The notes: generated by a model not told the origin, from the sequence alone. Positions 8,656 to 41,143 are shown, counted from the stretch's first letter. The stretch is DNA of 64,000 nucleotides from Acutalibacteraceae bacterium (GCA_045601905.1 JAZSAM010000040.1:1910-65909); one strand, 5' to 3'. Numbers and translations are program-made.

Positions 8656-9273
8656 TTAATAAATGACAAGCAATCTGCCTGATTTTACACTGATTGAGGC
8701 TTCTTCACCAATGAATTCATTGCTGACACCAAAGGGCGTATCAAGACGCAAGCTGACGTCATTTACGCAGTATCTGAGTCCTTTTATTGTAACACCGTTG
8801 CTTTCGTCGCAAAGAGAAAAAACTGAAATATAACCGTTTTTTCGTTGAGGCAGCGTGATTTCTCCGTCGGAAAAGCCGAGCCAGTTTTTCTCACCGTGAA
8901 TAAGCTTACCCTTTGCACCTTTACTGCAAAGATAAGAAAGAAGAGCAACATTTGCAACGGAATGGTCGCTCCTTTCACCACCGAGAGCACCGAAAATCAC
9001 AAAATCTCTGTAGCCCCGTTTCAGTCCTTCATCAACGGCAACCTTCATGTCGGTGAAGTCCTTTTCGCAGGGGAGTATAATCTTGTTTTCAAATTCAGGA
9101 GTTAATCCGAGTGAGTCAAAATCACCCACAACAAGGTCGCACATCCTTCCGAGAAGTGTACTGTGCTTAAATCCACCGTCAGCACAGATTATAAAATCAC
9201 CTTCATCGGCTTTTATGTCTGTTGCTTCGGGTACATCTCCTGCACCGATTATATAGCAGATATTATTCTCCAT
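8656..9273 (-). CDS. thiN: thiamine diphosphokinase
   Basis: IIGAGD...ICADGG...VGDFDS...KDFTDM...GGERSDH is the motif series typical of TPK. Confidence 0.88.
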   Translation of the reverse strand: MENNICYIIGAGDVPEATDIKADEGDFIICADGGFKHSTLLGRMCDLVVGDFDSLGLTPEFENKIILPCEKDFTDMKVAVDEGLKRGYRDFVIFGALGGERSDHSVANVALLSYLCSKGAKGKLIHGEKNWLGFSDGEITLPQRKNGYISVFSLCDESNGVTIKGLRYCVNDVSLRLDTPFGVSNEFIGEEASISVKSGRLLVIY

Positions 9274-26310: not shown

Positions 26311-27843
26311 TCAGGCTGACTGTTCAGCACTTTCTCTCTTTTCACGGATGAAAGCGTAGATAGGCTCGAGTCTTTCCTTTGTAAGAGGATAACCGAATCT
26401 CATAAGAAGCCATACGCCTGTGTAAACAACAGCAGGGATGATTGTGCAGATAAACATAATCTTCTTACTTGTGTCGTTTGCTGTGATAAAGCCGTTGCCT
26501 GCAGTTTCGCTGTCGTACTTTGCCCACTGAAGAAGGAAGAGCCCTGCGCCGTCAGCGATGGTCTGACCGAGCTTACGTGAGAAGGTGTAAACGGCATAAA
26601 CTGCGCTTTCGTTACGAAGACCTGTTGTGTATTCCTGATAATCGATAACATCCATAACAACTGCCCAGCAGGTAAGACTTACGAAGGTGTAGCCGAAGCC
26701 GATGAGAAGAAGACAAGCCATAAACATCCATGCAGGGAAGATGCCGTTTTCGGGATTGAGCTTGTCAATGATGCTCTGATTGTTTGCACAAACAGCAAGA
26801 GCAACGGAAGCGATTGCGGAAATGATTGAGAATTTACCGCAAAGCTCCTTCTTACCAAACTTTGCAGAAAGCTTGGGAGTGAAGAGCACGAGGCAAACCA
26901 TAGGAAGATAGTTGCAGATTGTGCCGAGAATGCTCAGGCTTGTGTTTGTGAAGTAGTTCTTATAAAGATAAGCGTTGAAGGAATTGAACTGAAGCTGACC
27001 GCTAATGAGAACACCTGCAAGTGCAACCGTTACGAAAGGACGGGACTTGAGAAGTCCGATGTAGGTCTTCTTGAGATCCATCTGAGGCTCTGCTTCTGAG
27101 GGAACTCGTTCCTTGGTGGTCTTGTAGCCCCAGAGATAGAAGATGATTGAAAGAATACCCATAATCACACCGAAGATGCACATCTTTGTGCCGTCGGCAA
27201 TCTCAACAGCCTTGCCCGTTGTCTGGTCAATGACCTCAACCATCTGATTTGTGGCAGGGTCAAGCTGAAGCTTTGTGGAGTAAATTACCATCGGTGCGAT
27301 AAGTGAAACAACAGCGCCGCCGATGCCTGAGCCGATTGAACGGAAGGTTGAAAGCAGGTTTCTGCCGTTGGGATCGTCGGTGATAACCGAAGCGAGTGAG
27401 CCGAAGGGAATGTTCATTCCGGTGTACATCATTCCGTAGAAGATGTAAGTTATGTAGGCAATAATGAGAAGTATGGTGGTGTTGTCTGTAAGCCTGTCAT
27501 AGGGCATAAAGCAAAGAAGTGTTGAAAGACCGAGCGGGATCGAAACCCACTTAAGATAAGGTCTGAACTTGCCGTCCTTGCTGGGCGGTCTTTTTGCAAC
27601 CATTGCACCCCAGATGGGGTCATTGATGCAGTCCCACAGACGGGTGATAATAAACATAAAGCCCGCCTTTGCCGGTGCGATTTTAAGCACGTCAGTCATG
27701 AAAACCTTAAGATAGCTTGAAATGTATGTAAGGTTAAACATATTGCCGGCCTCGGCAATGGTGTAGCCCGCAGCTTCCTTGATACCGATTTTATTCGGAT
27801 GGTCATTTACAGGCTTTTCTTTTTTGACTTTTTCTTTTGCCAT
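26311..27843 (-). CDS. GPH/MFS-family glycoside-pentoside-hexuronide:cation symporter
   Basis: About 12 TM segments. The DPIWG motif in loop 2-3 (RLWDCINDPIWGAMVAK) is typical of the GPH family. Confidence 0.85.
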   Translation of the reverse strand: MAKEKVKKEKPVNDHPNKIGIKEAAGYTIAEAGNMFNLTYISSYLKVFMTDVLKIAPAKAGFMFIITRLWDCINDPIWGAMVAKRPPSKDGKFRPYLKWVSIPLGLSTLLCFMPYDRLTDNTTILLIIAYITYIFYGMMYTGMNIPFGSLASVITDDPNGRNLLSTFRSIGSGIGGAVVSLIAPMVIYSTKLQLDPATNQMVEVIDQTTGKAVEIADGTKMCIFGVIMGILSIIFYLWGYKTTKERVPSEAEPQMDLKKTYIGLLKSRPFVTVALAGVLISGQLQFNSFNAYLYKNYFTNTSLSILGTICNYLPMVCLVLFTPKLSAKFGKKELCGKFSIISAIASVALAVCANNQSIIDKLNPENGIFPAWMFMACLLLIGFGYTFVSLTCWAVVMDVIDYQEYTTGLRNESAVYAVYTFSRKLGQTIADGAGLFLLQWAKYDSETAGNGFITANDTSKKIMFICTIIPAVVYTGVWLLMRFGYPLTKERLEPIYAFIREKRESAEQSA

Positions 27844-27866
27844 TTCAATTCTCCTTTATATAAGAT

Positions 27867-28097
27867 TCAACCGAAAAGTCCGGTCTTGACGGTGATTTCC
27901 CCGGGAATGAAGCCTTCCTTTTCAATAGCTTCAATAAAGAGCTTTTCGTCAATGTCCTTTTTCATTGTGACGGTAACTGCGTTTTTTTCACTGTCAGCCT
28001 TAACCTTTGAAACGCCGTCAAGAGCCTTTATGGCATCTTCAACTGCTTTTTCGCAGTGACCGCAATGCATACCGGTAACTTCGATAATTTTTTTCAT
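27867..28097 (-). CDS. copZ: heavy-metal-associated domain copper chaperone
   Basis: GMHCGHCEKAV is an MxCxxC motif. Start moved to ATG 28097, after aaagga. Confidence 0.9.
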   Translation of the reverse strand: MKKIIEVTGMHCGHCEKAVEDAIKALDGVSKVKADSEKNAVTVTMKKDIDEKLFIEAIEKEGFIPGEITVKTGLFG

Positions 28098-28175
28098 TGT
28101 CTTCATCCTTTCAAAAGATAATGTATAAATATACACTATATAGGATACACCGAAAGAAAGAAAAAATCAACATCA

Positions 28176-28224
28176 AAGCAGAATTTTCATTAATTTTTAA
28201 AAGCAGAATTTTGATTAATTTTTA
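28176..28224 (+). repeat. two 24-nt direct repeats (period 25) in the copZ upstream region
   Basis: AAGCAGAATTTTcATTAATTTTTA / AAGCAGAATTTTgATTAATTTTTA. Confidence 0.7.
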
Positions 28225-28236
28225 TTTCTGCATTTT

Positions 28237-28511
28237 AGGTTGGCGAGCATAAATCCGAACTCGCCTAAAAGTGTGACTTTTTGAGCCTTTTCGGCGTTTC
28301 GGACTTGAAAGGCGACAGCCTGTCGGCATCCTCAACATCCAAAAAGCCTTACAAAAATTCGCACTTTTGGGTCTGATGATTTTTTACAGAGCGAATTTTT
28401 GTCAAGACAAGGCACAAAACGCAGTAAATCCTTTCGGATTTGCGAGTATTTTAACAAGGGATTGACGAAAATCCGCCTGTAAAAACGGGTTCGGATTATA
28501 CTCGTCAACCT
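28237..28511 (+). mobile_element. MITE-like element A, copy 1 (275 bp, ~24-bp terminal inverted repeats)
   Basis: Left end is AGGTTGGCGAGCATAAATCCGAAC and right end is GTTCGGATTATACTCGTCAACCT. Near-identical to 28789-29064 and to the reverse complement of 30649-30924. No ORF. Confidence 0.6.
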
Positions 28512-28513
28512 AA

Positions 28514-28786
28514 GGTGACAGTATTCGAACCAAATAAGGTTTAATTGGGCATATTTTCACCGTAACAGCGTTAAAAAGCCTTGAAAGGCGCGAGTCTTCC
28601 TGCGGTTTTTGCCTTGTTACGATAAAAATCTTCTCCCATTAAACTTCGAAGGATCTTAAATGTTCAGGTTGTAGTGCATTTGAGATTTTCTTCGACGAAG
28701 TAATACTCGCGTATTGCGAGGAGAAAAAATTTCAAAGGTGCTGCAAATCGTACATTTAAGACTCATTTGGTTCGATTGCTGTCACC
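28514..28786 (+). repeat. element B (273 bp, 22-bp terminal inverted repeats) nested between A1 and A2
   Basis: Ends are GGTGACAGTATTCGAACCAAAT and ATTTGGTTCGATTGCTGTCACC, matching at 20 of 22 positions. Single copy in this window. Confidence 0.5.
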
Positions 28787-28788
28787 TT

Positions 28789-29064
28789 AGGTTGACGAGC
28801 ATAAATCCGAACTCGCCTAAAAGTGTGAATTTTTGAGCCTTTTCGACGTTTCGGACTTGAAAGGCGGCAGCCTGTCGGCATCCTCAACATCCAAAAAGCC
28901 TTACAAAAATTCGCACTTTTGGGTCTGTTGATTTTTTACAGAGCGAATTTTTGTCAAGACAAGGCACAAAACGCAGTAAATCCTTTCGGATTTGCGAGTA
29001 TTTTAACAAAGGATTGACGAAAATCCGCCTGTAAAAAACGGGTTCGGATTATACTCGTCAACCT
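28789..29064 (+). mobile_element. MITE-like element A, copy 2
   Basis: Differs from A1 at roughly 7 positions by eye. Confidence 0.6.
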
Positions 29065-29190
29065 ATGCGTCTTTATTCAGTTTTAAATTATAACACAAGC
29101 AAAAAATTAAGTCCACAATTTGACGCTTTTTAATAAAAAATCAGTAAATTAACCATATAAAATTCACTCCTTTTGGTCAAAACGACAAAA

Positions 29191-29481
29191 GGGGATGTAA
29201 AAAAAACTCGTTTTTTTACATCTCCTTTTTAGGGGCTGGGAAAAAATGCGCAGAATGAACAAACCGAGCCAAAATAAAGCGTTCAGCTTTATTTTGGCTT
29301 GCCCGACGGCGTACAAAGGTACTTAAGAGGGCGAGGTTTGTTTATAGCATAAAAGGCAAAAACCTTGTTTTTGCCTGCTTTTGCTGATTTTTACAGTTTT
29401 AAAGGGTTTCTTTGGTAGTTCAATACCGAAAGAAACCCTTTAGTTATCTTGTTTTATGCGGTCTGCACTTTTATTACAGCC
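29191..29481 (+). repeat. repeat family C copy 3
   Basis: Same architecture as copies 1 and 2. The internal pseudo-ORF is broken by a small insertion that creates a TAA stop. Confidence 0.85.
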
Positions 29482-29553
29482 ACTTTTGATATTCCGTCAG
29501 TCATAAGGGTTATCACTATAGCCCTTCAACTGTACCGAAGTGTACGAATTAAA

Positions 29554-30006
29554 TTAATCGTTGTCTACCTGAATGATTTCAACGTCTACAATGTAATCAG
29601 CAGCGTTTTCAGCAGTGATAAGAACACCGTTTACTGTAACATTCTTGAGCATTGCTCTGCTGCCTATTGTATCGCAGTTGTTAACAATAAGCTTACCGCC
29701 TTCGGGAAGAGTGATGTCAGCATTAACAATCATAATAACATTGTTTTCTTCAAGAACAACTAACTCTTCAACAGTTGCAGTAATGTCTCCGATATAAATC
29801 GGTCCGCCGATATTCTGCTGAACGAAAAGCATGCTTTCTGCTTCTACTACAAGATTCTCATAGCTGTAGGTTGCATAACGATCTGCATCCTTACCGATAA
29901 CGATGGTTTCTGTTACATCAGGCTTAACCTCAGGCTCTGTGGGCTCTGTTGAAGGCTCTGAGGGCTGAGTAACAACTTCGCCGTCACCGTAGGTAGCATT
30001 AGCATC
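29554..30006 (-). other. 150-codon open extension in frame with, and directly after, the TAA of the TasA-like gene 30007-30573
   Basis: There is no stop and no ATG/GTG/TTG for the first 58 codons after the TAA. It encodes a Pro/Glu/Thr linker plus a domain homologous to the C-terminus of 30946-31539 (MLF..TLP..GK.I..NVTVNG..IT.EN). Confidence 0.6.
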
Positions 30007-30573
30007 TTACTGATTGTCATAGCCGTCATATTCGTAAGAAAGCTGTGCAGCCTTTACAGTGATTGAAATGCCTTCGATAGTCTTGTTCTGATATTCGTTG
30101 TCTGCTTCTTCGTCCATGTGAGCAACGATTACAAGCTTTTCGCTTTCTTCAGGAAGAAGAGTGCCTTCGAAATCAGCAACATCGATTTCTTCACCGGCAA
30201 CTGATACCTTGAAGGTGATAACATCAAGAAGTTTTACGTCGCCGTCGATTCCGTTAACAATAACCTTATACTTAAGAGCAAGGTTGCCGTTGTTCTTGAT
30301 GTAAGCATCAGCTGTTTCATAAGTACAACCGGGCTCCCAAAGAACTTCATCGTTGCCTTCTGCCTTTACCCATTCAAGTGATTCGCCTTCAAGATCGTTG
30401 TCTTCTGCGTCTTCAAGAGCAACATCAAGAATACCTGACTGGATTGTGTTTCCCTTTGTGTTTGCTTCGTCTGTGAACCATGCAAATGTTGTGCCGATAA
30501 ACATTACTGCACAAAGGAAAATGGAAATAATGCTTGAAACAAGTGCATACTTCGTTGTTTTTGTGTTTCTCAT
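30007..30573 (-). CDS. TasA/camelysin-like protein with SipW-cognate signal peptide
   Basis: N-terminus ..IGTTFAWFTDEANT..., then WEPGCTYETADAYIKNNGNLALKYKV, a TasA-like beta-sandwich signature. RBS aaggagg. Confidence 0.8.
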   Translation of the reverse strand: MRNTKTTKYALVSSIISIFLCAVMFIGTTFAWFTDEANTKGNTIQSGILDVALEDAEDNDLEGESLEWVKAEGNDEVLWEPGCTYETADAYIKNNGNLALKYKVIVNGIDGDVKLLDVITFKVSVAGEEIDVADFEGTLLPEESEKLVIVAHMDEEADNEYQNKTIEGISITVKAAQLSYEYDGYDNQ

Positions 30574-30648
30574 TAGAATTACCTCCTTTTTTATTTTTGT
30601 TAAGAGAAACTTATATATCGAGCGACCTTACCGTCGCTTGGATATCTT

Positions 30649-30924
30649 AGGTTGGCAAGTATAATCCGAACCCGTTTTTGGCAGGCGGATTTTCGCCAAT
30701 CCTTTGTTAAAATACTCGTAAACCCGAAAGGATTTACTGCGTTTTGTGCCTTGTCTTGACAAAAATTCGCTCTGCAAAAAAACATCAGACCCAAAAGTGC
30801 GAATTTTTGTAAGGCTTTTTGGATGTTGAGGATGCCGACAGGCTGCCGCCTTTCAAGTCCGAAACGCCGAAAAGGCTCAAAAAGTCACACTTTTAGGCGA
30901 GTTCAGATTTATGCTCGTCAATCT
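30649..30924 (-). mobile_element. MITE-like element A, copy 3 (inverted relative to A1/A2), inside the operon
   Basis: Its reverse complement aligns end to end with A1 and A2, with scattered substitutions. It lies between the stop of 30946-31539 and the start of 30007-30573. Confidence 0.6.
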
Positions 30925-30945
30925 AACCCTTATTTGCCCGATCGA

Positions 30946-31539
30946 TCACATAAAAATTACTTTTTTTATGCCGGTTAAATACTGTGAATAGTTTTCTTTG
31001 GTAATTTTTTCTCCGTTTACGGTGACATTAAATAAAACAACCTGAATGTCAGAATCACCGTTTATACTGATAATTTTACCGTCTGCCGGAAGAGTAAAAT
31101 CACAATTACTGAATGAAATAATTTCGGCTGAAGCATCATCTTCAATTACAATAACATCATCAACATCAGCCGAAATACCTGTAAGAAAAAGCATATTTAT
31201 TTCAGCTTTTAAACTGGCAACAGCCCTTGCTTCAACTGTCTCACCTTCAATGAAAACATCACTGTCAGAATCGTATTTATCGCCCTCTATGACTATAAAG
31301 AAGACTTCACTCTCTTCAGCCGGAGTTTTTGTCGTCGGTTCAGTTATAGTTTCCTTTTCAGTAGTGGGTTCTTCGGTTGCGGGTTCTTTTCTGAACTCAC
31401 CTGCACTGATATCCTCAACATTCACCTTTGCCCCGTCTGTATACCAGGCAAAGGTTGTCCCAATAAGCATCACGGAACACAGTACTATTGAAATAATACT
31501 GCTTATGAACGCCTGGGTTGTTAATTTGTATTTTCTCAA
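30946..31539 (-). CDS. secreted protein: SipW-type signal peptide, Thr/Glu/Pro linker and a C-terminal domain shared with 29554-30006
   Basis: TTG start after ggaggg. N-terminus is IGTTFAWYTDGAKV. There is no TasA core between the signal peptide and the linker. Confidence 0.7.
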   Translation of the reverse strand: MRKYKLTTQAFISSIISIVLCSVMLIGTTFAWYTDGAKVNVEDISAGEFRKEPATEEPTTEKETITEPTTKTPAEESEVFFIVIEGDKYDSDSDVFIEGETVEARAVASLKAEINMLFLTGISADVDDVIVIEDDASAEIISFSNCDFTLPADGKIISINGDSDIQVVLFNVTVNGEKITKENYSQYLTGIKKVIFM

Positions 31540-31604
31540 GTCCTTTCCCTCCGTTTCATTTTCTGAGAGAATCTGTATTTTTTGTTCATTCCTTGATTTT
31601 ACAA

Positions 31605-32351
31605 TCAGACCTCTGCTGTTGCCTCGGCCTCTTCGGGATTTTCGATAACTTCCTCGACTTCATCCGTAAAATCGTCCGTAAAGAGCTTTTCACCTAATTG
31701 CTTTTTAAGAGCCATAAGCTCTTCCATCATTTTCTCGCTCTTTTCGCGCTCCTTCTGAAGCTCTGCCTTCTGAACTTCAAGCTCCTTAAGCTGCTCATCC
31801 TTGTACTTTCTGAAAAGTCTGACACAACTGATGCCCTGTGAAAGAATGAGGATAAAGAAGGGAAGGAATATACACATTATATAACCGGGAACGGTTTTAA
31901 TATAATTGAAGAATGTACCGACCTTCGGAATGCTGAACTCATACTTACCTACAATGTACGGATAGGTTACTACCTTTTCATCGTCGGTATCAGTCGTTGT
32001 ACCGTAGGTGATGAAGCCGGGATTTCCGTGCTCATCCTTTGCAGGCTTTCTGATTTTATGAGTAATTGTTTCACCGTAATTCTCAAAGCTTTGTGACATA
32101 TAGGAAATTATGTCACCGGCTTTAAGCTCTGAGTAATCCTTAACCTCTTTTACGAAAATGAGGTCACCTGCACCAAAATCCGTCTTGCTCATTGAATCGG
32201 AAAGGACAATGAATGCCTTGTAGCCGAAAAGAGAACGGTCATTGCGATTGAAGGTGTTGACGGAAATGATTGTAAAAATCATCATTCCCACGGCGATGCA
32301 CACAACAAGAGCCACAAAAACTCTTCTGATAATATCAAATGCTTTTTTCAT
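31605..32351 (-). CDS. sipW: signal peptidase I, SipW (ER/archaeal) type, with a ~68-aa charged coiled-coil tail
   Basis: N-terminal TM segment, SDSMS catalytic-Ser box, ITHKI His box, second TM segment, then KDEQLKELEVQKAELQKEREKSEKMMEEL... Confidence 0.85.
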   Translation of the reverse strand: MKKAFDIIRRVFVALVVCIAVGMMIFTIISVNTFNRNDRSLFGYKAFIVLSDSMSKTDFGAGDLIFVKEVKDYSELKAGDIISYMSQSFENYGETITHKIRKPAKDEHGNPGFITYGTTTDTDDEKVVTYPYIVGKYEFSIPKVGTFFNYIKTVPGYIMCIFLPFFILILSQGISCVRLFRKYKDEQLKELEVQKAELQKEREKSEKMMEELMALKKQLGEKLFTDDFTDEVEEVIENPEEAEATAEV

Positions 32352-32353
32352 AA

Positions 32354-32896
32354 TCAGTCAAAAACCTTCTCTGTATTATTTCTTGTCTGAACTGACTTTG
32401 CGTAGAAGATGAAGGAAAGACCCTTTGACTGAAAATCATTACCTGAATCCTCGGGGAAGTGGAAAATAATTTTCAGGTCGCGCCTTTCGCCAAGGGCAAG
32501 TACATCATCCACGGCTTCTTTTTCCTCGGTAAGCTCGTTTATCTTACCTGAAAGAAGAACCTTTTCCCCGTCCTTGATTGTTATTTCAAGAGCATCGGCA
32601 AGCTCGCCTGAAACCTCCTTGAAATATAACTTGTAATAAATTTCATCGCTTCCTGTGTTTTCAACGAAGAAATCCTTTTCAACGGTCATACCGGGCTCAA
32701 AAAGGAATTCGTCAGACTCAATCACGGGCTCTCCGTCATTGAGATTGATGCCTACGCCGCCTGTCCGGAAGGTGTTTCCGCCTACGGTTACCGAAAGGAA
32801 AAGAACTGCAAAGGTTGTTATGCAAAGACAGCCTATAAGTCCGATAATCAGCATTATACCTGCGGAAAGCTTTCTTGATGTCTTATCAGCAGCCAT
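32354..32896 (-). CDS. TasA/camelysin-like secreted protein
   Basis: Start taken as MAADKTSRK at 32896. FEPGMTVEKDFFVENTGSDEIYYKLYF is the TasA-like core. Confidence 0.75.
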   Translation of the reverse strand: MAADKTSRKLSAGIMLIIGLIGCLCITTFAVLFLSVTVGGNTFRTGGVGINLNDGEPVIESDEFLFEPGMTVEKDFFVENTGSDEIYYKLYFKEVSGELADALEITIKDGEKVLLSGKINELTEEKEAVDDVLALGERRDLKIIFHFPEDSGNDFQSKGLSFIFYAKSVQTRNNTEKVFD

Positions 32897-33752
32897 GAGC
32901 CTCCTCCCTTCTCTTTCTGAGTGAAAGAACAAATACTGTGGAAGAAACCGCAAGAACTGCAATTATTATTCCTATCTGTGTTGAATCGCCCGTATCCGGC
33001 GGGTCAATAAGCTCACCCGGCGGAGGGTTCTTTCTTGTTGTCGATTCGGTTGTTGTCTCAGCTGTCGGTTCGGTTGTCGGCTCAGAGGTTGCCTCTGTCT
33101 CTGATTCACTGACTGTCTCACTTGTGGACTCGGTTTCAGACTCACTTGTGGATTCAGTTGTGGATTCAGTTGTGGATTCAGTAGTTGATTCGGTAGTTGA
33201 TTCGGTAGTAGACTCTGTTGTTGTCTCCTCTTCCTCTTCAACCCACCATTTGAAATCGCAGATGAGCTCCTTGTACTGATACTCGTTACCGACGCTTGTA
33301 TCAAGGTATACTATAATATCGTATACAAGAGTCTGTGTTGTCTTTTCCTCACTGGAAATTTCCGTGTCAACACACTCCGGCATATCCTTCATAAGTCCGT
33401 CATAAAGAGGCTCCTCGCTACCGTCAAGGATCAGCTTACATTTAAGAACCTCTGCGAGCTTTTCATAGCCGGGGTAAATAACTGTTGAAAAATGAACGGT
33501 AAGGGTTCCGACAAAGGAAACATCCAGCTTATATGTTCCCTTTACTTCGTCTCCGGGGAACATATTTACTGCATTGAAACGGAATTTCTCAATGGGATTG
33601 TTTTTATAAAGCGCAAGTGAAACCTCTCCTGACTGAGCCGTGAGTCTGTTGCCGTATGCAGCCGATGCCGTACCTGTACAAAAAGCAAGCATACTGAAAA
33701 CGAAAAACACAGCAATCATAAGGGAAAGCTTTTTAATGCTTCTTTGCTTCAT
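32886..33752 (-). CDS. secreted TasA-like-fold protein with a (TEST)n linker and an LPXTG-like cell-wall sorting signal
   Basis: Sec signal peptide ...CTGTASAAY. MFPGDEVKGTYKLDV core. TESTTESTTEST repeats. C-terminus PPDTGD plus IGIIIAVLAVSSTVFVL plus RKRREE. ATG at 33752 follows aggagg. Confidence 0.8.
   Translation of the reverse strand: MKQRSIKKLSLMIAVFFVFSMLAFCTGTASAAYGNRLTAQSGEVSLALYKNNPIEKFRFNAVNMFPGDEVKGTYKLDVSFVGTLTVHFSTVIYPGYEKLAEVLKCKLILDGSEEPLYDGLMKDMPECVDTEISSEEKTTQTLVYDIIVYLDTSVGNEYQYKELICDFKWWVEEEEETTTESTTESTTESTTESTTESTTESTSESETESTSETVSESETEATSEPTTEPTAETTTESTTRKNPPPGELIDPPDTGDSTQIGIIIAVLAVSSTVFVLSLRKRREEAHGC
33147..33216 (-). repeat. 12-nt tandem repeat (about 6 units) encoding (TEST)n
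   Basis: The plus strand reads tgtggattcagt / tgtggattcagt / ... / agttgattcggt. Confidence 0.8.
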
Positions 33753-33841
33753 TGTCAATCTCCACCTCCTGGTTATATTATCATTCTGGTATTGAGAAAG
33801 GTGTAGGAATATGCACGGATATCCGACTTATAAGTTGTATA

Positions 33842-33870
33842 ATTATACACCAGCACCCATCCGATTTCAA
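33842..33870 (-). promoter_or_regulatory. sigma-A-like promoter of the TasA/SipW operon
   Basis: The minus strand reads TTGAAA, 17-nt spacer, TATAAT, about 90 nt upstream of the first ATG. Confidence 0.6.
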
Positions 33871-33951
33871 GTGTTAAAGTTTTATTTGTATATATTGACA
33901 ATTTTATCTGTCATTTTTTTAACATAGATTAATCCTTCAAATTCTCAGACC

Positions 33952-33990
33952 AAAAAAAGGGGCTGTCGCCTTAAGCGACAGCCTCTATTT
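33952..33990. terminator. rho-independent terminator (serves the 38-codon ORF on the minus strand)
   Basis: GGCTGTCGC-cttaa-GCGACAGCC, flanked by an A7 run on the plus strand, which is a T7 run on the minus strand. Confidence 0.75.
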
Positions 33991-34026
33991 TAAAATTTCA
34001 AATTTTAAAACAGTGAATAAATAAAA

Positions 34027-34143
34027 TTATTCAGCTTCGTTTTCGAGAACCCAATTCTTGAATGCGAAATAGATCTTATCGAAAAGCTCTACGATGTCTG
34101 CCCAGTACTCCTTAAGGAAATCAAAAAATACGTTGTCACCCAT
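34027..34143 (-). CDS. 38-aa small protein, amphipathic and aromatic-rich
   Basis: MGDNVFFDFLKEYWADIVELFDKIYFAFKNWVLENEAE. RBS aaaggaga lies 7 nt upstream. A terminator follows about 40 nt downstream. It is below the 60-aa cut-off of the ORF track. Confidence 0.6.
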   Translation of the reverse strand: MGDNVFFDFLKEYWADIVELFDKIYFAFKNWVLENEAE

Positions 34144-34304
34144 TGTAGTTATCTCCTTTCATAATATTTGATAAATCAGGAGTCTCCCCCTCATTTTCAC
34201 ATAAATTATATAACGGGATTTAAATTTTGTCAATATTTAATTAAAAAAAAGTTCACGAATTGCGTAAAAAAATTTTTTTGAAAAATATTTTTACATTTTT
34301 TGCC

Positions 34305-34333
34305 GTTTTGTTGCAGAAAACCTGCAACAAAAC
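34305..34333 (+). promoter_or_regulatory. 12-bp perfect hairpin immediately upstream of terS
   Basis: GTTTTGTTGCAG-aaaac-CTGCAACAAAAC followed by acgTTTT. Could be a terminator or antitermination site, or part of a pac region. Confidence 0.3.
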
Positions 34334-34351
34334 ACGTTTTCCGGACTACTT

Positions 34352-34867
34352 ATGAGAGAACTTTTTCTCTCAGAAAGGAGAATTACCATCAAAAACGAAA
34401 TTACAAGCAAAGAAAAACTCTTTTGCACCTATTACAGTCTCAACTGTAATGCAAGAGAAGCTGCAGCAAAATCCGGTTACATTTTCCCGGAAAAAAGTGC
34501 ACTCAGACTACTGAAAAGAAAGGAGATACGAGCCTTCATTGATGAGCTTGACAAGCAGCGAAGGAGCAACAGAAAGGATATAGCCCGTGGCTATGAAAGA
34601 CTCGCCTTCGGCTGTGTCAGCGATGCAATAAGGCTGATGTTTGCAGATAATGTGAATGCAGACGAGCTTGACCGGATGGATCTTTTCAACATTTCCGAAA
34701 TCAAAAGAAAAAAAGGCGGTGACATCGAAATCAAATTCTTTGACCGCATAAAGGCTCTTGAAAAGCTTCATCTTATGAGCGACGAAAAAGACTGTCTTAC
34801 GGGTAAGTCACTTTACTCGGCAATTGCTTATTCAGCAGCAGCACTGAAGGAGGATGAGCTTGGGTAA
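34352..34867 (+). CDS. phage terminase small subunit
   Basis: KEKLFCTYYSLNCNAREAAAKSGY is the HTH typical of the Terminase_2 family. Lies directly upstream of terL. The start codon is uncertain. Confidence 0.75.
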   Translation: MRELFLSERRITIKNEITSKEKLFCTYYSLNCNAREAAAKSGYIFPEKSALRLLKRKEIRAFIDELDKQRRSNRKDIARGYERLAFGCVSDAIRLMFADNVNADELDRMDLFNISEIKRKKGGDIEIKFFDRIKALEKLHLMSDEKDCLTGKSLYSAIAYSAAALKEDELG

Positions 34868-36119
34868 CCGTAATTTTTCTGCTTTTTCAAAAAAGCAGCT
34901 TGTCGCACTCTGCTGGTGGCACGATGAATCCCCCTTTTGCAGCAGGGACGGGATCATCTGCGACGGCGCAGTCAGAAGCGGCAAAACCACCTGTATGTCA
35001 CTTTCCTTTGTCTCATGGGCTTTTTACAGCTTTGACGACACCTCCTTTGCAGTTTGCGGCAAAACCATCACCTCATTAAGGCGTAACATCATCACGGAGC
35101 TTTTGCCCCGCCTGAGAGGTCTCGGCTTTGAATGCAAGGAAAGGCTCAGTCAGAACATGATCGAAATAACCCTTGAGGACAGAACGAACAGATTCTATCT
35201 TTTCGGAGGCCGTGACGAAGGCTCTGCTTCTCTTATTCAGGGTATGACTTTGGGTGGTGTTCTCCTTGACGAAGTTGCTCTCATGCCCCGTTCCTTTGTT
35301 GAACAGGCTCTGGCACGTTGCTCCCTTGCGGGCTCAAAATTCTGGTTTAACTGTAACCCCGAAAATCCGATGCATTGGTTTTACAAGGAGTGGATACTAA
35401 AGCACAGAGAAAAGAACTGTCTTTATGTTCACTTTCTGATGTCCGACAATCCCTCACTTTCACCGAAAATGATCAGCCGCTACGAAAACCTTTACAGCGG
35501 CACCTTTTATGAAAGATTTGTTCTCGGGAAATGGGTTGCCGTTGACGGCCTTGTTTACCCCGATGCGGCACAGGGGAAATACACAGTAAATCCACCCGTA
35601 CAGAGCTTTGAAAAGTATTATGTCTCCTGTGATTACGGGACTGTCAACCCCACCTCAATGGGGCTGTGGGGACTTTATGACGAGGTCTGGTACCGCATTG
35701 ACGAATACTATTTCGACTCAAGGAAACAGGGCAGGCAGAAAACCGATGAAGAATATTATGAGGATCTTCTTTCCTTTACAGAGGGTAAAACAATCGCTTC
35801 GGTAATAATCGATCCCTCTGCCGCATCCTTCATCGAGTGCATCTGCCGACACGGAAAATTCAGTGTCACTCCTGCAAGAAACGATGTTACTGACGGTATC
35901 CGCAAGGTGCAAAGCGCCTTTCGTGACGGAAAAATCCGCATTTCCCCCTGCTGTAAAAGTGCAATCAGGGAATTCTCCCTTTACCGCTGGGATGAGAGTG
36001 CAAAAAAGGATGCTCCGAAAAAAGAAAACGACCACGCCATGGATGAAATCAGGTACTTCGTTCTGAATGTGCTTTCCTCGCAGGATGACGGATTTTTCGC
36101 CCTTGCATCAAGCAGATAA
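34854..36119 (+). CDS. phage terminase large subunit
   Basis: Walker A sequence GAVRSGKT, Walker B-like sequence VLLDE, and a C-terminal nuclease-like region with DHAMDEIRY. Confidence 0.9.
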   Translation: MSLGNRNFSAFSKKQLVALCWWHDESPFCSRDGIICDGAVRSGKTTCMSLSFVSWAFYSFDDTSFAVCGKTITSLRRNIITELLPRLRGLGFECKERLSQNMIEITLEDRTNRFYLFGGRDEGSASLIQGMTLGGVLLDEVALMPRSFVEQALARCSLAGSKFWFNCNPENPMHWFYKEWILKHREKNCLYVHFLMSDNPSLSPKMISRYENLYSGTFYERFVLGKWVAVDGLVYPDAAQGKYTVNPPVQSFEKYYVSCDYGTVNPTSMGLWGLYDEVWYRIDEYYFDSRKQGRQKTDEEYYEDLLSFTEGKTIASVIIDPSAASFIECICRHGKFSVTPARNDVTDGIRKVQSAFRDGKIRISPCCKSAIREFSLYRWDESAKKDAPKKENDHAMDEIRYFVLNVLSSQDDGFFALASSR

Positions 36120-36158
36120 ATTCGGAAAATCTTTGTTTCCGGGAAAGGAGAAAAAAAT

Positions 36159-37331
36159 TTGGCAATCGGAAAAAGAAAAAAAGACTCTCCCGAAAGTGCC
36201 GTTGTGGCAGTCCCGCAGACCTCAGGCTCATCCCATCCCTTTGTGAGCCTGAGCAGCTATAATCCTGTTTCATCGGCTGATATGGCACTTTTCAAGTCAC
36301 TGAGAGAAGCCATTCCCGTAATTGACGCCGCCATCTTCAAGATCATCCGTCTCATCGGCTCCTTTACGGTTGAGTGCGAAAACAAAGAAGCAGGAAAGGC
36401 TCTGGCCAACTTTCTCAGAAATGTCAATGTCGGTGGCACCCGTCAGGGAATTGATGCTTTCATTTCAACCTTTCTTGAGCAGCTTCTGACCTACGGCACT
36501 GCTATCGGTGAAATGATTACTGACGGAGACACCGTCACCCATCTTTACAACGCCGATCTGAAATGCGTATCCCTTTCTGAAGGAAGCAGTGCTCTTGACA
36601 TCACCGTAAGCACAGATAAGGGAAACGGCACCTTTACTCCCGTTAAGTATCCTGCCCTCATCCTGCTTTCCGTGCACAACCCCGAGCCGGGCAAGATTTA
36701 CGGCACCTCGATTCTCAAGGGACTTCCCTTTGTAAGCGACATTCTTCTGAAAATTTACAACACCATCGGCACAAACTGGGAAAGAGTCGGCAACGTGCGC
36801 TTCGCCGTTACCTACAAGCCCCAGAACGATGTTATGGACAAGGCTTACGCAAAGGAAAGAGCAATGCTCGTGGCAAACGAATGGAGCAAGGCAATGAGCT
36901 CGGGGAGTTCGGCGGCAAAGGACTTTGTTGCCGTAGGCGATGTCAGCATTAAGGCAATCGGTGCAGACAATCAGATTCTCGACAGTGAAATTCCCGTAAG
37001 GCAGATGCTCGAGCAGATAATTGCAAAAATCGGCATTCCTCCCTTCCTGCTCGGTCTTAACTGGTCAACTACGGAACGAATGAGCTATCAGCAGGCTGAT
37101 ATTCTCACAAGCGAAATCGAATTTTACCGCCGTGAGCTTAATCCCATTATCTCACAGATCTGCCGCCTTTTCTTAAGGCTCAACGGCTTCGACTGTGACT
37201 TTGACATCAACTGGGAGCACATAACGCTTCAGGACATCACGGAAATTGCACGAAGCCGTTACCTTGACGCACAGACAAGAAAAATTGACTATGAAACAGG
37301 AGGTGAAGCCAATGAATCAGGCACCCAATAA
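36159..37331 (+). CDS. phage portal protein
   Basis: Size and position after terL fit a portal, and the sequence character is portal-like. TTG start. Confidence 0.7.
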   Translation: MAIGKRKKDSPESAVVAVPQTSGSSHPFVSLSSYNPVSSADMALFKSLREAIPVIDAAIFKIIRLIGSFTVECENKEAGKALANFLRNVNVGGTRQGIDAFISTFLEQLLTYGTAIGEMITDGDTVTHLYNADLKCVSLSEGSSALDITVSTDKGNGTFTPVKYPALILLSVHNPEPGKIYGTSILKGLPFVSDILLKIYNTIGTNWERVGNVRFAVTYKPQNDVMDKAYAKERAMLVANEWSKAMSSGSSAAKDFVAVGDVSIKAIGADNQILDSEIPVRQMLEQIIAKIGIPPFLLGLNWSTTERMSYQQADILTSEIEFYRRELNPIISQICRLFLRLNGFDCDFDINWEHITLQDITEIARSRYLDAQTRKIDYETGGEANESGTQ

Positions 37332-38253
37332 CACTCCCGACGCAAGTGACCTTGAGCTTATAAACACCTACACACGCAATCCCATTTCAGTTGATGAGGT
37401 TTACTGCTTCAATCTCACCCTCTGCGACAACGAGGTTGACCGGGACTTCGAACGCTTTTCCGTTGACGCTCTCAAGGGACTTTGTGAGCTTTTCCCCGGA
37501 AGAACAGGCATCTGCGACCATAATATGAGCGCTAAAAATCAGATGGCCCGTATTTTCAGAACCTGGCTCGAGGAGGACAGCACAAAAAAGACCTCTGTGG
37601 GTGAAGCCTATGTAGCATTAAGGGCAAAGGCCTATATGCTCAGAACAAAGGAAAACGAGGAGCTTATTTCCCAGATTGAAGGCGGCATCAAAAAGGAGGT
37701 AAGCGTAGGCTGCTCAATGAAAAATGTCACCTGCTCAATCTGCGGTAAGGACATGAAAGGCCACGAATGCAGTCACATCAAGGGAAAGCACTACGGCAAA
37801 AAGCTCTGTCACGGAATTCTTGACAACGCAAACGATGCTTACGAATGGTCTTTTGTCGCCGTACCTGCACAAAAGAACGCAGGCGTTACAAAGGCCTTTT
37901 CTCCCGAAAAAGAAAAAGACGCCGTCGTATCTGATTCCTCAGACAGCATTTATACCGACAAGGTTCTCTGCTCAAAGGAGCACCTGAGTCAGCTTGAAGG
38001 CCTCGCGCAGGACGGAAGGCTTTACAGAGACGAGCTAAAAAAACAAATGAAGAAGTACGCACTTATTGCTATGCCTAAGGTAACAGCCGAAAGCATAATT
38101 GCAGCCTGCGAGGGTATGGAAACCTCCGCACTCAAGGCTCTTACCGACGGACTCAGAGCGCAGGCAGGGGAGATAATTCCCGTAACTCTTCAGCTTCGTG
38201 AGTTAAATGAAAAAAAGACAAAAAACTTCAACAACAATGCTTTTAAAATTTAA
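37312..38253 (+). CDS. putative prohead protease with C-terminal scaffold-like coiled coil
   Basis: ATG 37312 follows aggagg. VDRDFERFS...GICDHN...EVSVGCS resembles the spacing of S78-type prohead protease motifs. The C-terminal half is charged and helical. Confidence 0.5.
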   Translation: MNQAPNNTPDASDLELINTYTRNPISVDEVYCFNLTLCDNEVDRDFERFSVDALKGLCELFPGRTGICDHNMSAKNQMARIFRTWLEEDSTKKTSVGEAYVALRAKAYMLRTKENEELISQIEGGIKKEVSVGCSMKNVTCSICGKDMKGHECSHIKGKHYGKKLCHGILDNANDAYEWSFVAVPAQKNAGVTKAFSPEKEKDAVVSDSSDSIYTDKVLCSKEHLSQLEGLAQDGRLYRDELKKQMKKYALIAMPKVTAESIIAACEGMETSALKALTDGLRAQAGEIIPVTLQLRELNEKKTKNFNNNAFKI

Positions 38254-38265
38254 GGAGGATTTTTT

Positions 38266-38607
38266 ATGAACGCACTTTTAAACGGCTTTGACACAAATGA
38301 GGCCACTTTCAGAACAATGACCAAGCTTTCACCCAACAGAGCGGTGGCACTCAGCAGCGACGGTACTCTTTTTTATCCCTTAAGCGGAAAATTTACAGGT
38401 ATACTCACTTCCTGCAAGGATAATATCGGCTCCGTTGTAATGAGAGGCTATGCAGTAGCCGAATTCAAAAGCACCGTCCCCTCAGTCGGTATCTGCAATC
38501 TCGCTCCCACACCCACAGGTTACATGGAGGTTGACGATACAAACGGTAAGCCCTATACCGTTGTGGGCGTTGATCTTATTAACAAAACTATTGAATTTAT
38601 TCTCTAA
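38266..38607 (+). CDS. phage head-associated hypothetical protein
   Basis: RBS aaggagg. Lies between the protease and capsid genes. Confidence 0.55.
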   Translation: MNALLNGFDTNEATFRTMTKLSPNRAVALSSDGTLFYPLSGKFTGILTSCKDNIGSVVMRGYAVAEFKSTVPSVGICNLAPTPTGYMEVDDTNGKPYTVVGVDLINKTIEFIL

Positions 38608-38622
38608 GAGGAGGAAAACGAA

Positions 38623-39627
38623 ATGAATTTTGATAACATCAGACTCGATAAAGGACTTTACACCACCGGCAAGAGCTTCACTCAGGCGCTTGAAGAGATT
38701 GACCCCAGCGAAAACTACATAGGCACAGAGCTTGAAGGGCTCGACGCCTTCCAGCGTCAGCTCAAGCGCTTTGACATCAAGGTCAGCGGCAAAAACAGCG
38801 ACCCTATCGAAAAGTTTTTCAGAACAACCGATTCAGCTGCCCTTTTCCCTGAATATATTTCACGCTCCGTTGCTCAGGGCGTTGATTCAACAGACATTCT
38901 TGATTCAATTGTTGCCACAACAACAAAAATTGAAGGTCTTGATTACCGTTCAGTAACAACCGAAAATTGCGAGGATGCATACCAGCCCTCAGTCATCGCA
39001 GAAGGTGCTTTTGTACCTGAAACAAAAATTGTCACAAAGGACAAGCTTGTCCACCTTCATAAGTGCGGCAGAATGCTTAGCGCCTCCTACGAAGCAATCC
39101 GCTTCCAGAGAATCGACCTTTTCACTGTCGCTCTCAGACAGATCGGTATCGGCATTGCACGTGCCCAGCTTGCAGATGCAATTGAAGTTCTTATTTACGG
39201 TGCTTCCGACTCCGCACCTGCAAAAACGGTTACCGCTGAAAATTCAACCGTATCCTTCGCAAATCTTCTCAAGCTCTGGGATGCTCTTTCTCCCTATAAT
39301 CTCTCAACTCTCATTGCTTCACCTGATGTAATGCTCAAGCTTCTCGCTCTTCCCGAATTCAGAGACAGCTACAAGGGTCTCGATTTCCACGCATCAGGCA
39401 AAATGATCACTCCTCTCGGTGCCGAGCTCTTCAAGCACGAGCCTCTCAATGCAGACACGCTTCTTGCCCTCGACAAGACCTGCGCTCTTGAAAAAATCGA
39501 AGCAATGCCCGTTACTACAGAATTTGACAAGCTTATTGACCGTCAGCTTGAAAGAGCCTCAATCACAACGATTGCCGGCTTCTCAAAGATTTTTGAAGGT
39601 GCTTGTGCAGTAATGAGCTTCGAATAA
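38623..39627 (+). CDS. phage major capsid protein
   Basis: 334 aa, RBS gaggagg, in the canonical position after protease/scaffold. No close family recalled. Confidence 0.65.
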   Translation: MNFDNIRLDKGLYTTGKSFTQALEEIDPSENYIGTELEGLDAFQRQLKRFDIKVSGKNSDPIEKFFRTTDSAALFPEYISRSVAQGVDSTDILDSIVATTTKIEGLDYRSVTTENCEDAYQPSVIAEGAFVPETKIVTKDKLVHLHKCGRMLSASYEAIRFQRIDLFTVALRQIGIGIARAQLADAIEVLIYGASDSAPAKTVTAENSTVSFANLLKLWDALSPYNLSTLIASPDVMLKLLALPEFRDSYKGLDFHASGKMITPLGAELFKHEPLNADTLLALDKTCALEKIEAMPVTTEFDKLIDRQLERASITTIAGFSKIFEGACAVMSFE

Positions 39628-39638
39628 GGAGTGGTTGA

Positions 39639-40001
39639 ATGATTACCTCAAGCGATGTTCTTACACAGCTCAGTTGTAATTATGACACCTCGGGTTATCC
39701 CGAAGAGGAGCTTCTCTCCTGCTGTGAGGCAGGACTCAGCTGGGTAAATTCCCGACTTAAAACCAACACCTCAAAGGATGATCCACTCATCGCACAGACC
39801 GCAGCGGCAATTGCACACTATCACTTTTTTGTCCGCACTCTCACAGAGCCTGACAAATATGAGAGCTACAAGGTCGGTGACATCACTGTAAATGCCGATC
39901 CCTCAAAGGCTCTTGAAAGAGAAAAGCAGATCCGTGACAATGCCATTGCCGATGCGGCATCAATTCTTGTTGACGGAGGTTTTTACTGCTGTGGTTACTG
40001 A
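39639..40001 (+). CDS. head-tail connector / adaptor-like protein
   Basis: 120 aa, immediately after the capsid gene. RBS aaggag. Confidence 0.5.
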   Translation: MITSSDVLTQLSCNYDTSGYPEEELLSCCEAGLSWVNSRLKTNTSKDDPLIAQTAAAIAHYHFFVRTLTEPDKYESYKVGDITVNADPSKALEREKQIRDNAIADAASILVDGGFYCCGY

Positions 40002-40005
40002 TAAA

Positions 40006-40329
40006 GTGGCGAAAGCCCTTATTGAAAAATCGGGAGTCACTCTCCTTATAAAAAAAGACTCCGTAACCGTAGGCAGCTTCAAGGCCTTTCTTCAGCCTCT
40101 CAGGTATAAAAACAAAATATACCTGAGGGGTGTCCCCACGGAATTAGGTTACGACAGTCAGAAAAAATACCTGCTTATCTCACCGTCCGATGTTGACCTT
40201 TCCGATGTTGACGGAACAAACCGTGCCCTTTATTTTGAAGACAGACATCTCAGTATCGACCACAGTGAAAGGGTTTACTTCGGCAATGTTCCCTTTTACA
40301 CCTGGTCCATTGTAAGTAAGGAGGAATAA
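40006..40329 (+). CDS. phage head-closure-like hypothetical protein
   Basis: GTG at 40006 lies just after the upstream stop and is preferred over the 39892 start, which would overlap by 110 nt. The start is uncertain. Confidence 0.45.
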   Translation: MAKALIEKSGVTLLIKKDSVTVGSFKAFLQPLRYKNKIYLRGVPTELGYDSQKKYLLISPSDVDLSDVDGTNRALYFEDRHLSIDHSERVYFGNVPFYTWSIVSKEE

Positions 40330-40330
40330 A

Positions 40331-41143
40331 ATGCTTTTCACTTCAGAAATAATCAATGATATGATAGAGGCGATAAACGGTCAGCTAAAGCCGAAAAAGT
40401 GCGAAGCCATCCGCGGCTTTGACACAAAGGGTCTGCCGATTCCTCTCAAGAAGATTTACCTCTCCTTTGCTCCCGAAAAAAATACCGTTACATACTTCAG
40501 CAACGACTTTGAGGAGTTCTGTCAGAAGAATGAAGCCACAATCCGTATGACCTGCTTTTCGCCTCTCGCGTCCCTTGCCTCGGACACTCACGTACTGCTT
40601 GAGCAGGTGCTTACCTTCCTCAACGAAAAGTACATCACGGAAATTTCCGGCTACACCATCGGTGAAACGGAATACGACAGCGATGTCAAGGCCTTCCGTA
40701 TTATCTGTAAGATATTCTACGAAAGAGAATCCTGCCCTGCCGAAAGCTCGGAAAATACCAACATCACAACTCCATATAACTTTTTCTGCAAATCCCACGT
40801 CACCGACAAGGACATTCACATCACCGCCGAGGAGCACGCAAAATACAACGAGCCCTTTGTCACCGGCACCTACACGGGACACGGATACGATGTTGAAAAG
40901 GAAATCGAGCTGGGCTTCAGACCGAAGCTTCTTTTCATCTTCCGTCAGGGCTATCCACCTATGGTTTTCGACAGCGACATTCTCTTTATGAAAAATTACT
41001 GCGGATTTTCCTTCGGCGGAAAAAGCTCTAAAAATCTTCACATTACCTCCACCGGCTTTTATGTGCTGGATACACAGAAAACAGAAAATGAAACAAGGCT
41101 CAATGAGGACGGCATTGTTTATGTTTATGTAGCCTTCAGATAA
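40331..41143 (+). CDS. phage-module hypothetical protein (270 aa)
   Basis: RBS aaggagg. Last gene of the co-directional module. No family recognised. Confidence 0.55.
   Translation: MLFTSEIINDMIEAINGQLKPKKCEAIRGFDTKGLPIPLKKIYLSFAPEKNTVTYFSNDFEEFCQKNEATIRMTCFSPLASLASDTHVLLEQVLTFLNEKYITEISGYTIGETEYDSDVKAFRIICKIFYERESCPAESSENTNITTPYNFFCKSHVTDKDIHITAEEHAKYNEPFVTGTYTGHGYDVEKEIELGFRPKLLFIFRQGYPPMVFDSDILFMKNYCGFSFGGKSSKNLHITSTGFYVLDTQKTENETRLNEDGIVYVYVAFR

Follow-up and report, generated by a model that had tools for sequence, protein, structure and literature searches.

We analysed a 64,000-nucleotide (nt) stretch of DNA from Acutalibacteraceae bacterium GCA_045601905.1 (JAZSAM010000040.1:1910-65909; hereafter the window), which holds a gene cluster encoding a SipW-type signal peptidase together with several proteins of the TasA superfamily. 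TasA-type fibres are model biofilm scaffolds of Gram-positive bacteria, and how they start, how they end and how they attach to the cell are still debated. Gene calls were taken from an open reading frame (ORF) listing and from domain scans with Pfam and TIGRFAM/NCBIfam hidden Markov models (HMMs), which together place five genes, here named g1 to g5, all co-oriented on the minus strand. An initial annotation of the same DNA had described a SipW operon that encodes several proteins of the TasA superfamily, including one with a sortase-type anchor, and HMM matches, hhalign comparisons and a match to TIGR01167 bear this description out. It had read g1 as a secreted TasA-like protein with a TEST stalk and a PPDTG/hydrophobic/RKRREE sorting signal, g2 as a TasA/camelysin-like protein, g3 as a SipW (endoplasmic reticulum (ER)/archaeal-type) signal peptidase, g4 as no more than a signal peptide joined by a linker to an unknown C-terminal domain (C-domain), and g5 as a TasA-like protein with the motif GTTFAWFTD. 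All five assignments hold, that of g2 by a marginal score; what had been missed is a nonsense codon that truncates the g5 allele and a mobile element that lies between g4 and g5.

A promoter-like site, TTGAAA-17-TATAAT, lies at 33842-33870 on the minus strand (11 of 12 positions matching), about 84 nt 5' of g1, after the terminator (33983-33961) of a small ORF that precedes the operon and ahead of the g1 ribosome-binding site (RBS); the putative promoter reported earlier is present. The region shows no excess of promoter-like sites over shuffled sequence (15 found, 13.6 expected), so the case for this one is its position and not statistics. An invertible promoter in the window was considered and rejected, since the site has no flanking inverted repeats. 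g1 and g2 overlap by 11 nt and 2 nt separate the g2 stop from the g3 start, an arrangement that would fit coupled expression of g1 to g3. The gap between g4 and g5 is 372 nt, and every part of the proposed five-gene set is present, but its description as one operon is uncertain for g5, because a miniature inverted-repeat transposable element (MITE) separates g5 from g4. A hairpin scan places a terminator-like hairpin 3' of the original end of g5 (29354-29376, minus strand) and a further one at 29299-29267. An Rfam scan of 27800-34400 (E up to 1) returned solely a sub-threshold match to the SurA small RNA (19.7 against 100 bits) and no riboswitch, cyclic di-GMP (c-di-GMP) type included, in the g1 leader.

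Seven further loci repeat the order g1-g2-sipW-(two or three g5-type genes): L001 (GCA_045587645.1), L002 (Oscillospiraceae metagenome-assembled genome (MAG) SIG583), L003 (Clostridiales MAG GCA_022792475.1), L004, and L005 to L007, which are conspecific with the window. A scan of genome contigs returned one of these, L002. The operon is widespread in gut-type Clostridia and its family very common in metagenomes; the Clostridial host first proposed agrees with the nearest named relative, an Oscillospiraceae MAG.

TasA-like subunits, signal peptidase and wall anchor

Two of the subunits, g2 and g5, match the TasA/camelysin family Peptidase_M73 (PF12389) directly, each with 23.1 bits against a threshold of 22.5. 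g2 (32354-32896, minus strand) has its true start at an internal ATG at 32896, preceded by the RBS GGGAGGAGG, and its product of 180 amino acids (aa) has an identical counterpart among database proteins. No other subunit is as well conserved: g2 has 1,096 relatives (E up to 1e-3), the best 120 of which are 180-185 aa long, mostly carry PF12389 and show a mean column identity of 76%; V36, V38, N41, F43, T45, G46, E63, E67, P68, G69 and K74 are invariant in the family. g5 (30007-30573, minus strand; 188 aa) is one of more than 6,600 g5-type proteins (E up to 1e-3), which bear diverse C-terminal extensions, Beta_helix among them. g1 has no direct PF12389 match and is linked to the other two by hhalign, which aligns the g2 and g5 families at 98.2% (E 3e-14), g1 and g2 at 96.2% (E 2e-9) and g1 and g5 at 92.7% (E 4e-7). 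From these sequence comparisons we accept g2 and g5 as members of the superfamily, and g1 by transitivity.

The SipW-cognate signal peptide model TIGR04088 (cutoff 19) recognises g5, which scores 24 and has the motif GTTFAWFTD at 30469-30495. g4 scores 13.4-13.6, below the cutoff despite the shared GTTFAW[YF]TD motif, and neither g1 nor g2 gives a match, so that the HMM support anticipated in the initial annotation exists for g2 and g5 with Peptidase_M73 and for g5 with TIGR04088, and is missing for g1, g2 and g4 with the latter. Directly after the predicted cleavage site lies a putative donor-strand motif, conserved in the g2 family as V36, V38, N41, F43, T45 and G46 (98-100%) and in the g5 family as WFTD, N42, I44, Q45 and G47 (90-99%), and retained in g4. 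By analogy, this conserved N-terminal segment of g2 and g5 matches the donor strand of TasA and BsaA (PMC9674648; BsaA residues 28-38).

The peptidase gene, g3 (31605-32351, minus strand), is assigned to the SipW type (ER/archaeal, S26B) by TIGR02228, with a score of 62 against a cutoff of 51.85. It carries the motifs SDSM (aa 51-54) and THKI (aa 97-100), which we take to be the Ser/His catalytic motifs of S26B enzymes. With a score of 73.5 it fails the Bacillus SipW equivalog NF046067 (cutoff 190), and by these scores it is a SipW-like enzyme, not an orthologue of Bacillus SipW. Orthologues hold the same place in L001 to L007, that of L002 being 73% identical. After its second transmembrane (TM) segment g3 continues into a C-terminal tail of about 60 aa (aa 185-248; 31605-31800), also found in L001 and L002, in which a charged coiled-coil-like stretch, KYKDEQLKELEVQKAELQKEREKSEKMMEELMALKKQL, is followed by an acidic end. 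Bacillus SipW has a second, C-terminal function in biofilm control.

g1 (32886-33758, minus strand; 290 aa) heads the operon, although in conspecific L005 the gene is annotated from the ATG at 33752, which could be the true start here too. A signal peptide ending in ASA-A is followed by a beta-sandwich domain (about aa 45-175), a Thr/Glu/Ser stalk (aa 174-243; 33030-33239) in which TESTTEST is encoded by 12-nt repeats, and a sorting signal made up of PPDTG (aa 253-257; 32988-33002), a hydrophobic stretch of 19 residues (aa 262-280; 32919-32975) and RKRREE. g1 passes the LPXTG_anchor model TIGR01167 (19.6, cutoff 15.9) and falls below the cutoff of Pfam Gram_pos_anchor, PF00746 (15.1 against 20). 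An AlphaFold2 (AF2) model of its N-domain shows an all-beta sandwich after a disordered N-terminal segment, with a mean predicted local distance difference test score (pLDDT) of 82.5.

Among the best 120 of the 1,842 relatives of g1 (E up to 1e-3), the anchor motif is SPxTG in 41, PPxTG in 34 and LPxTG in 7, with SPKTG, PPKTG and SPQTG the commonest forms; (S/P)PXTG is the motif cleaved by Clostridioides difficile SrtB (PMC4155245, PMC5118464). The segment that joins the signal peptide or TM helix to the first core strand is hypervariable in this family, from 0 to about 80 residues long. Because it holds no conserved motif, it suggests that g1 is an acceptor and not a donor of strands. Many g1-family proteins (for example P0123, P0130, P0136 and P0143) begin with a hydrophobic helix without an evident AXA site; VPDNLITPD and then a long acidic insert of low complexity come between this helix and the core domain. 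In such relatives both termini may at first act as tethers, the N-terminus through a signal anchor and the C-terminus through the sorting signal.

Architecture of g4 and truncation of g5

The sequence of g4 (30946-31539, minus strand; 197 aa) and the architecture of its orthologues mark it as a candidate donor-strand-only protein. Its SipW-type signal peptide, with GTTFAWYTD at 31435-31461, is followed by about 17 conserved residues at the mature N-terminus, WYTDGAKVNVEDISAGE; a Thr/Glu/Pro linker then leads into a C-domain of about 97 aa (aa 96-192; 30964-31254), and a TasA core is absent. The same architecture is seen in P0242, P0243 (from L002) and P0245 and in conspecific strains, where the protein is 284 aa long; in the divergent orthologues the mature N-terminus is conserved and the linker is not. 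Because P0242, P0243 and P0245 share this layout, it is a maintained one and no private deletion, and we rejected the idea that g4 is a recent deletion derivative. With the donor segment kept and the rest of the TasA domain gone, g4 could donate a strand and would be unable to accept one.

In a full HMMER search across 1.84 billion representative proteins, the C-domain turned up in only 41 at E up to 1e-3. The module spans about 97 aa, usually stands at the extreme C-terminus and at times occurs in two or three copies, and most of its carriers have a SipW-type signal peptide and a TasA-like N-domain. It also ends large DUF6562 lipoprotein-type proteins with lipobox-like AASC N-termini and a Bacteroidota-like character (P0254, P0257, P0258, P0261, P0264, P0266 and P0276), and one SLH-domain protein, P0277, carries it as well. 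It seems to be a module common to different surface-display systems. We infer a binding function solely from its position and its carriers; its presence on TasA-like, DUF6562 and SLH proteins makes it a candidate surface-binding module.

The AF2 model of the C-domain is confident and all-beta (pLDDT 90.9, predicted TM-score (pTM) 0.84). Foldseek searches of the PDB and BFVD gave nothing significant (best E 0.15-0.23); the best TM-scores, 0.53-0.67, are all with right-handed beta-helices, among them PL3 pectate lyase and pectinesterase. The domain lies outside Pfam, a scan of 29 C-domains having produced just two weak Beta_helix/NosD matches. We interpret the domain as a short surface module of the beta-solenoid type, and as a rare one.

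A second copy of this module lies beyond the end of g5. The g5 ORF closes at a TAA (30007-30009) after a complete TasA-like domain, and the frame stays open past this stop for 150 further codons, to 29554. The orphaned in-frame 3' part (29554-30006, minus strand) encodes a Pro/Ser/Thr/Glu linker and a second predicted beta-solenoid C-domain (29581-29859), a paralogue of that of g4 (E 3e-29 with the C-domain HMM). When the two parts were fused and used as a query, intact full-length homologues were found (P0001, 342 aa and 67% identity; P0003, P0004 and P0005, about 54%), and all full-length homologues have Tyr at the position of the stop. The conspecific loci L005 to L007, metagenomic contigs with 96-99% DNA identity to the window, have TAT there and an intact g5 of 359 aa, which in L005 scores 23.2 with TIGR04088. 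Nucleotides 29418-29960 are 99.3% identical to the intact g5 of L005, and because the region after the stop has no frameshifts and just two amino-acid changes relative to conspecific g5, the truncation is recent.

By this comparison the stop is a recent T-to-A nonsense mutation. An assembly error is less likely. Recoding or an alternative genetic code at the TAA was rejected, given that TAA ends 33 of the 45 long ORFs in the window and that the conspecific strains have TAT. An exact lookup of the 188-aa g5 matched no contig.

The element between g4 and g5 is a MITE-like insertion of about 289 bp (30646-30938, with no strand assigned), bounded by terminal inverted repeats (TTAGGTTGACGAGYATAAWTCCGAAC...) and containing a hairpin at 30737-30718. 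Further copies lie downstream of the operon at 28235-28514 and 28787-29065 as direct repeats of each other, and the g4-g5 copy is inverted and 95% identical to them; all three are about 280-289 bp long, 95-98% identical and supplied with an internal hairpin. L005 to L007 have an empty site in place of the g4-g5 copy, GATCG-TTAAGG-TATCC, and an intergenic distance of 88 nt, and no copy of the element occurs in L001 to L007. Its position just after g4 may lower transcription of g5. Two tandem 25-nt direct repeats, AAAGCAGAATTTTSATTAATTTTTA, lie beside a MITE copy at 28175-28224, just upstream of an HMA-domain gene (27867-28136).

The nonsense codon and the MITE raise the question of whether the locus is decaying in this strain, a pseudogenising remnant that no longer specifies a functional structure. 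The linkers are also shorter than in the conspecific strains, g4 having 197 aa against 284 and g1 290 against 300. We consider such decay improbable. g1 to g4 are intact and 96-97% identical in DNA to strains with an intact g5, the promoter and RBSs are intact, g5 itself retains a complete TasA-like domain, and the truncation is so recent that no frameshift and two amino-acid changes have followed it. The linker differences, in turn, look like ordinary repeat polymorphism: as Thr/Glu/Ser/Pro tracts, they point to repeat-mediated variation in stalk length. The linker sites concerned are at about 31255-31400 in g4 and 29930-29990 in g5, and the g5 linker of L005 has extra PSTEP repeats. The strains thereby offer natural comparisons of g5 intact or truncated, the MITE present or absent, and linkers of various lengths.

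A proposed wall-anchored fibre

We propose, with moderate confidence, that the operon builds a cell-wall-anchored, SipW-dependent surface fibre of the TasA/BsaA superfamily through polar donor-strand assembly, a model in which each step beyond domain identity is inference. Sec would export the subunits, whose signal peptides would hold them in the membrane until SipW cuts after the TTFA motif and frees the N-terminal strand. By donor-strand exchange of the kind described for TasA and BsaA, the freed strand would then enter the beta-sandwich of the following subunit. g4, able to donate and not to accept, would like TapA give the first strand and come to sit at the distal tip, showing its beta-solenoid. 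g2 and/or g5-type subunits would form the shaft, an intact g5 adding one beta-solenoid per copy; in this strain, g5 would be a bare TasA-like subunit after the loss of its linker and beta-solenoid. g1 would accept the last strand as the wall-anchored base, and a housekeeping SrtB-like sortase, encoded elsewhere, would join it to peptidoglycan. The direction of assembly can be tested with this short parts list, which has a single donor-only protein, one or two candidates for the shaft and a single anchored protein that shows no conserved donor strand.

Several observations weigh against this model. The Peptidase_M73 matches are barely over threshold and cover mainly the N-terminal part. Sequence-profile searches of the PDB with the g1, g2 and g5 family alignments found neither TasA nor any other meaningful match, so that the case for homology to TasA is made by Pfam, by hhalign and by comparing folds. 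The folds lend support and no more: the g1 model reaches a TM-score of just 0.48 with TasA (5of2/5of1; the highest in Foldseek, E about 6e-4), and many generic jelly rolls have better E-values than TasA. g1 of the window still has a g5-like "GN...SG" segment, and its acceptor-only role is thus a proposal at the level of the family. Its signal peptide has an ordinary ASA-A site that TIGR04088 does not match, so g1 may be no SipW substrate. For the sortase, the ORFs of 120 aa or more across the window contain no TLxTC-type motif, and no sortase is encoded within 10 kb of five related loci with gene or Pfam tables, the Pfam check (10 kb or less) having covered L001, L003, L004 and L005.

An alternative is an arrangement in which nothing polymerises and the proteins, displayed singly or released, merely share a dedicated peptidase, g1 being a stalked adhesin of the MSCRAMM (microbial surface component recognizing adhesive matrix molecules) type and g4 and g5 secreted proteins with a beta-solenoid binding module. 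The layout of g1, with a domain, a low-complexity stalk and a sorting signal, is the classic one for single display; self-complemented TasA-like monomers exist (PDB 5of1/5of2, which the g1 model matches); BsaB of Clostridium perfringens makes no long oligomers (PMC11580942); and assembly at the present locus is argued by analogy. We nevertheless think this arrangement unlikely. Unless strands are donated, it is difficult to see why g4 keeps exactly the donor strand in divergent orthologues; this strand hardly varies within the g2 and g5 families, three paralogous families stand in a fixed gene order, and polymerisation has experimental precedent in both TasA and BsaA.

The wall-anchored fibre model draws first on the tapA-sipW-tasA operon of Bacillus subtilis. 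The initial annotation took that paradigm to have no separate tip or adaptor, which is not so: TapA is an accessory subunit that donates the N-terminal strand with which the TasA fibre starts (PMC9674648, PMC10151520). g4 is best read, by analogy, as a functional counterpart of TapA and hence as not unprecedented. The resemblance would be one of function only, joining a signal peptide, a donor-like strand and an unrelated domain; TapA has a complete Ig-like domain without homology to g4, which gives no match to the TapA/YqxM model TIGR04087 at E up to 1, whereas g4 has a beta-solenoid on a long linker. The two systems share an operon-borne ER-type signal peptidase and translational coupling of sipW to the gene 5' of it, and would also have in common jelly-roll subunits whose donor strand is N-terminal and an accessory protein that gives a strand without being a shaft subunit. 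They differ in that Bacillus has a single TasA and no sortase-anchored paralogue of it, against three TasA-like paralogues here, and in that g3 lies under the SipW equivalog cutoff.

Another parallel is the sipW-bsaA-bsaB-bsaC cluster of C. perfringens with adjacent srtB, likewise a Clostridial SipW operon with TasA-like paralogues and, in most strains, an LPXTG-bearing bsaB-like gene (PMC7395162, PMC11580942), which Kivimaki et al. place beside srtB (PMC11580942). The same study notes that BsaA/TasA genes often share an operon with several paralogues and with genes for LPxTG proteins, sortases and signal peptidases, and locates BsaA assembly at the membrane (PMC11580942). Here, by contrast, the adjacent genes include no sortase, VWA protein (BsaC) or two-component system, the operon opens with the anchored gene and has sipW in its middle, and beta-solenoid modules and a donor-only protein are features not described in the bsa system. 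Against the BsaA-family model TIGR04090 (cutoff 60), g2 with 20.2 bits and g5 with 12.8 both fail. Donor-strand exchange in BsaA has been modelled and tested by mutating the residues of its isopeptide bonds, with the triad N35/E56/K74 (PMC7395162, PMC11580942); we claim no such triad, and the invariant N41/E63/E67/K74 of g2 and N42/E80/K101 of g5 are mere leads towards one.

Three other systems share individual traits. The AbpX preprint gives an AlphaFold 3 (AF3)-predicted donor-strand complex between an LPXTG anchor and a fibril subunit in Clostridium amylolyticum, and predicts tip and minor subunits (10.64898/2026.01.04.697558). AbpX/TasA-like loci, with LPXTG or SLH anchors, have the same parts list of fibril, minor and tip subunits, LPXTG anchor and signal peptidase I (SPase I). 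They belong to another subfamily, their SPase I has ten TM helices and they are reported to form calcium-dependent lattices. Among C. difficile SrtB substrates the (S/P)PXTG motif corresponds to the PPDTG of g1 (PMC4155245, PMC5118464, PMC4591827), but the known substrates are not TasA-like, and no c-di-GMP riboswitch lies upstream here. SpaA-type sortase pili likewise have a wall-anchored base, a distal tip adhesin and presumed growth at the membrane-proximal end; there a sortase links the subunits, whereas here strand exchange would be non-covalent, with sortase anchoring g1 only.

To our knowledge, no wall-anchored TasA-type fibre has been proven experimentally. To that extent the earlier statement that such a fibre was uncharacterised stands; the idea itself was already in print (PMC11580942, 10.64898/2026.01.04.697558), and the concept of an LPXTG-anchored multi-subunit TasA-like filament, proposed in these two preprints of 2024-2026, is not new. 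Features particular to this locus are a beta-solenoid protein that would only donate strands, a sorting motif of the SrtB type, and the g2 family.

A more specific version of the proposal, which we put forward tentatively as possible rather than probable, is a hybrid pilus: a donor-strand polymer fixed by sortase through an acceptor-only g1 and capped by a donor-only g4 that bears an undescribed beta-solenoid adhesin, the Asn, Glu and Lys residues of g2 perhaps forming isopeptide locks as in BsaA. If this were true, the variable C-terminal modules of g5-type paralogues would amount to an exchangeable adhesin repertoire in gut Clostridia.

Genomic neighbourhood

Upstream of the operon, on the opposite strand and beginning 480 nt away, stands a phage-like head module of about 7 kb (34352-41143, plus strand) with small and large terminase, portal, possible scaffold/protease and capsid genes and four small ORFs, followed by an ABC transporter. 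Adjacency of the module is conserved in L002 and L005, and the cluster could in principle be cargo that serves the phage, a moron or lysogenic conversion function. We regard this as very improbable and rejected it, because L001, L003 and L004 have the operon without phage genes; within the window, the module also shows no recognisable genes for integrase, tail or lysis functions, and the GC content is unremarkable. The module itself may be a phage remnant or an element resembling a gene transfer agent (GTA).

Immediately 5' of g1, and oriented as g1 is, lies a 38-aa ORF, MGDNVFFDFLKEYWADIVELFDKIYFAFKNWVLENEAE (34027-34143, minus strand), with a perfect TTGACA-17-TATAAT promoter at 34233-34205 and its own terminator at 33983-33961. 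The peptide has neither a signal peptide nor an NCBIfam match, and is kept in the same place in L005 and L006 (one substitution) and L002 (81%).

A tyrosine recombinase gene stands upstream of the operon in L003. L004 has a recombinase upstream as well, without inverted repeats of the kind seen in L003, and the window has neither. In L003, perfect 29-nt inverted repeats (8777-8806 and 9059-9087) enclose a 252-bp segment that holds the sole promoter-like site, TTGAAA-17-TATTAT with a TG, facing the g1 homologue. Because the repeats and the promoter lie between the recombinase gene and the operon, this segment looks like an invertible promoter that would subject the operon to phase variation.

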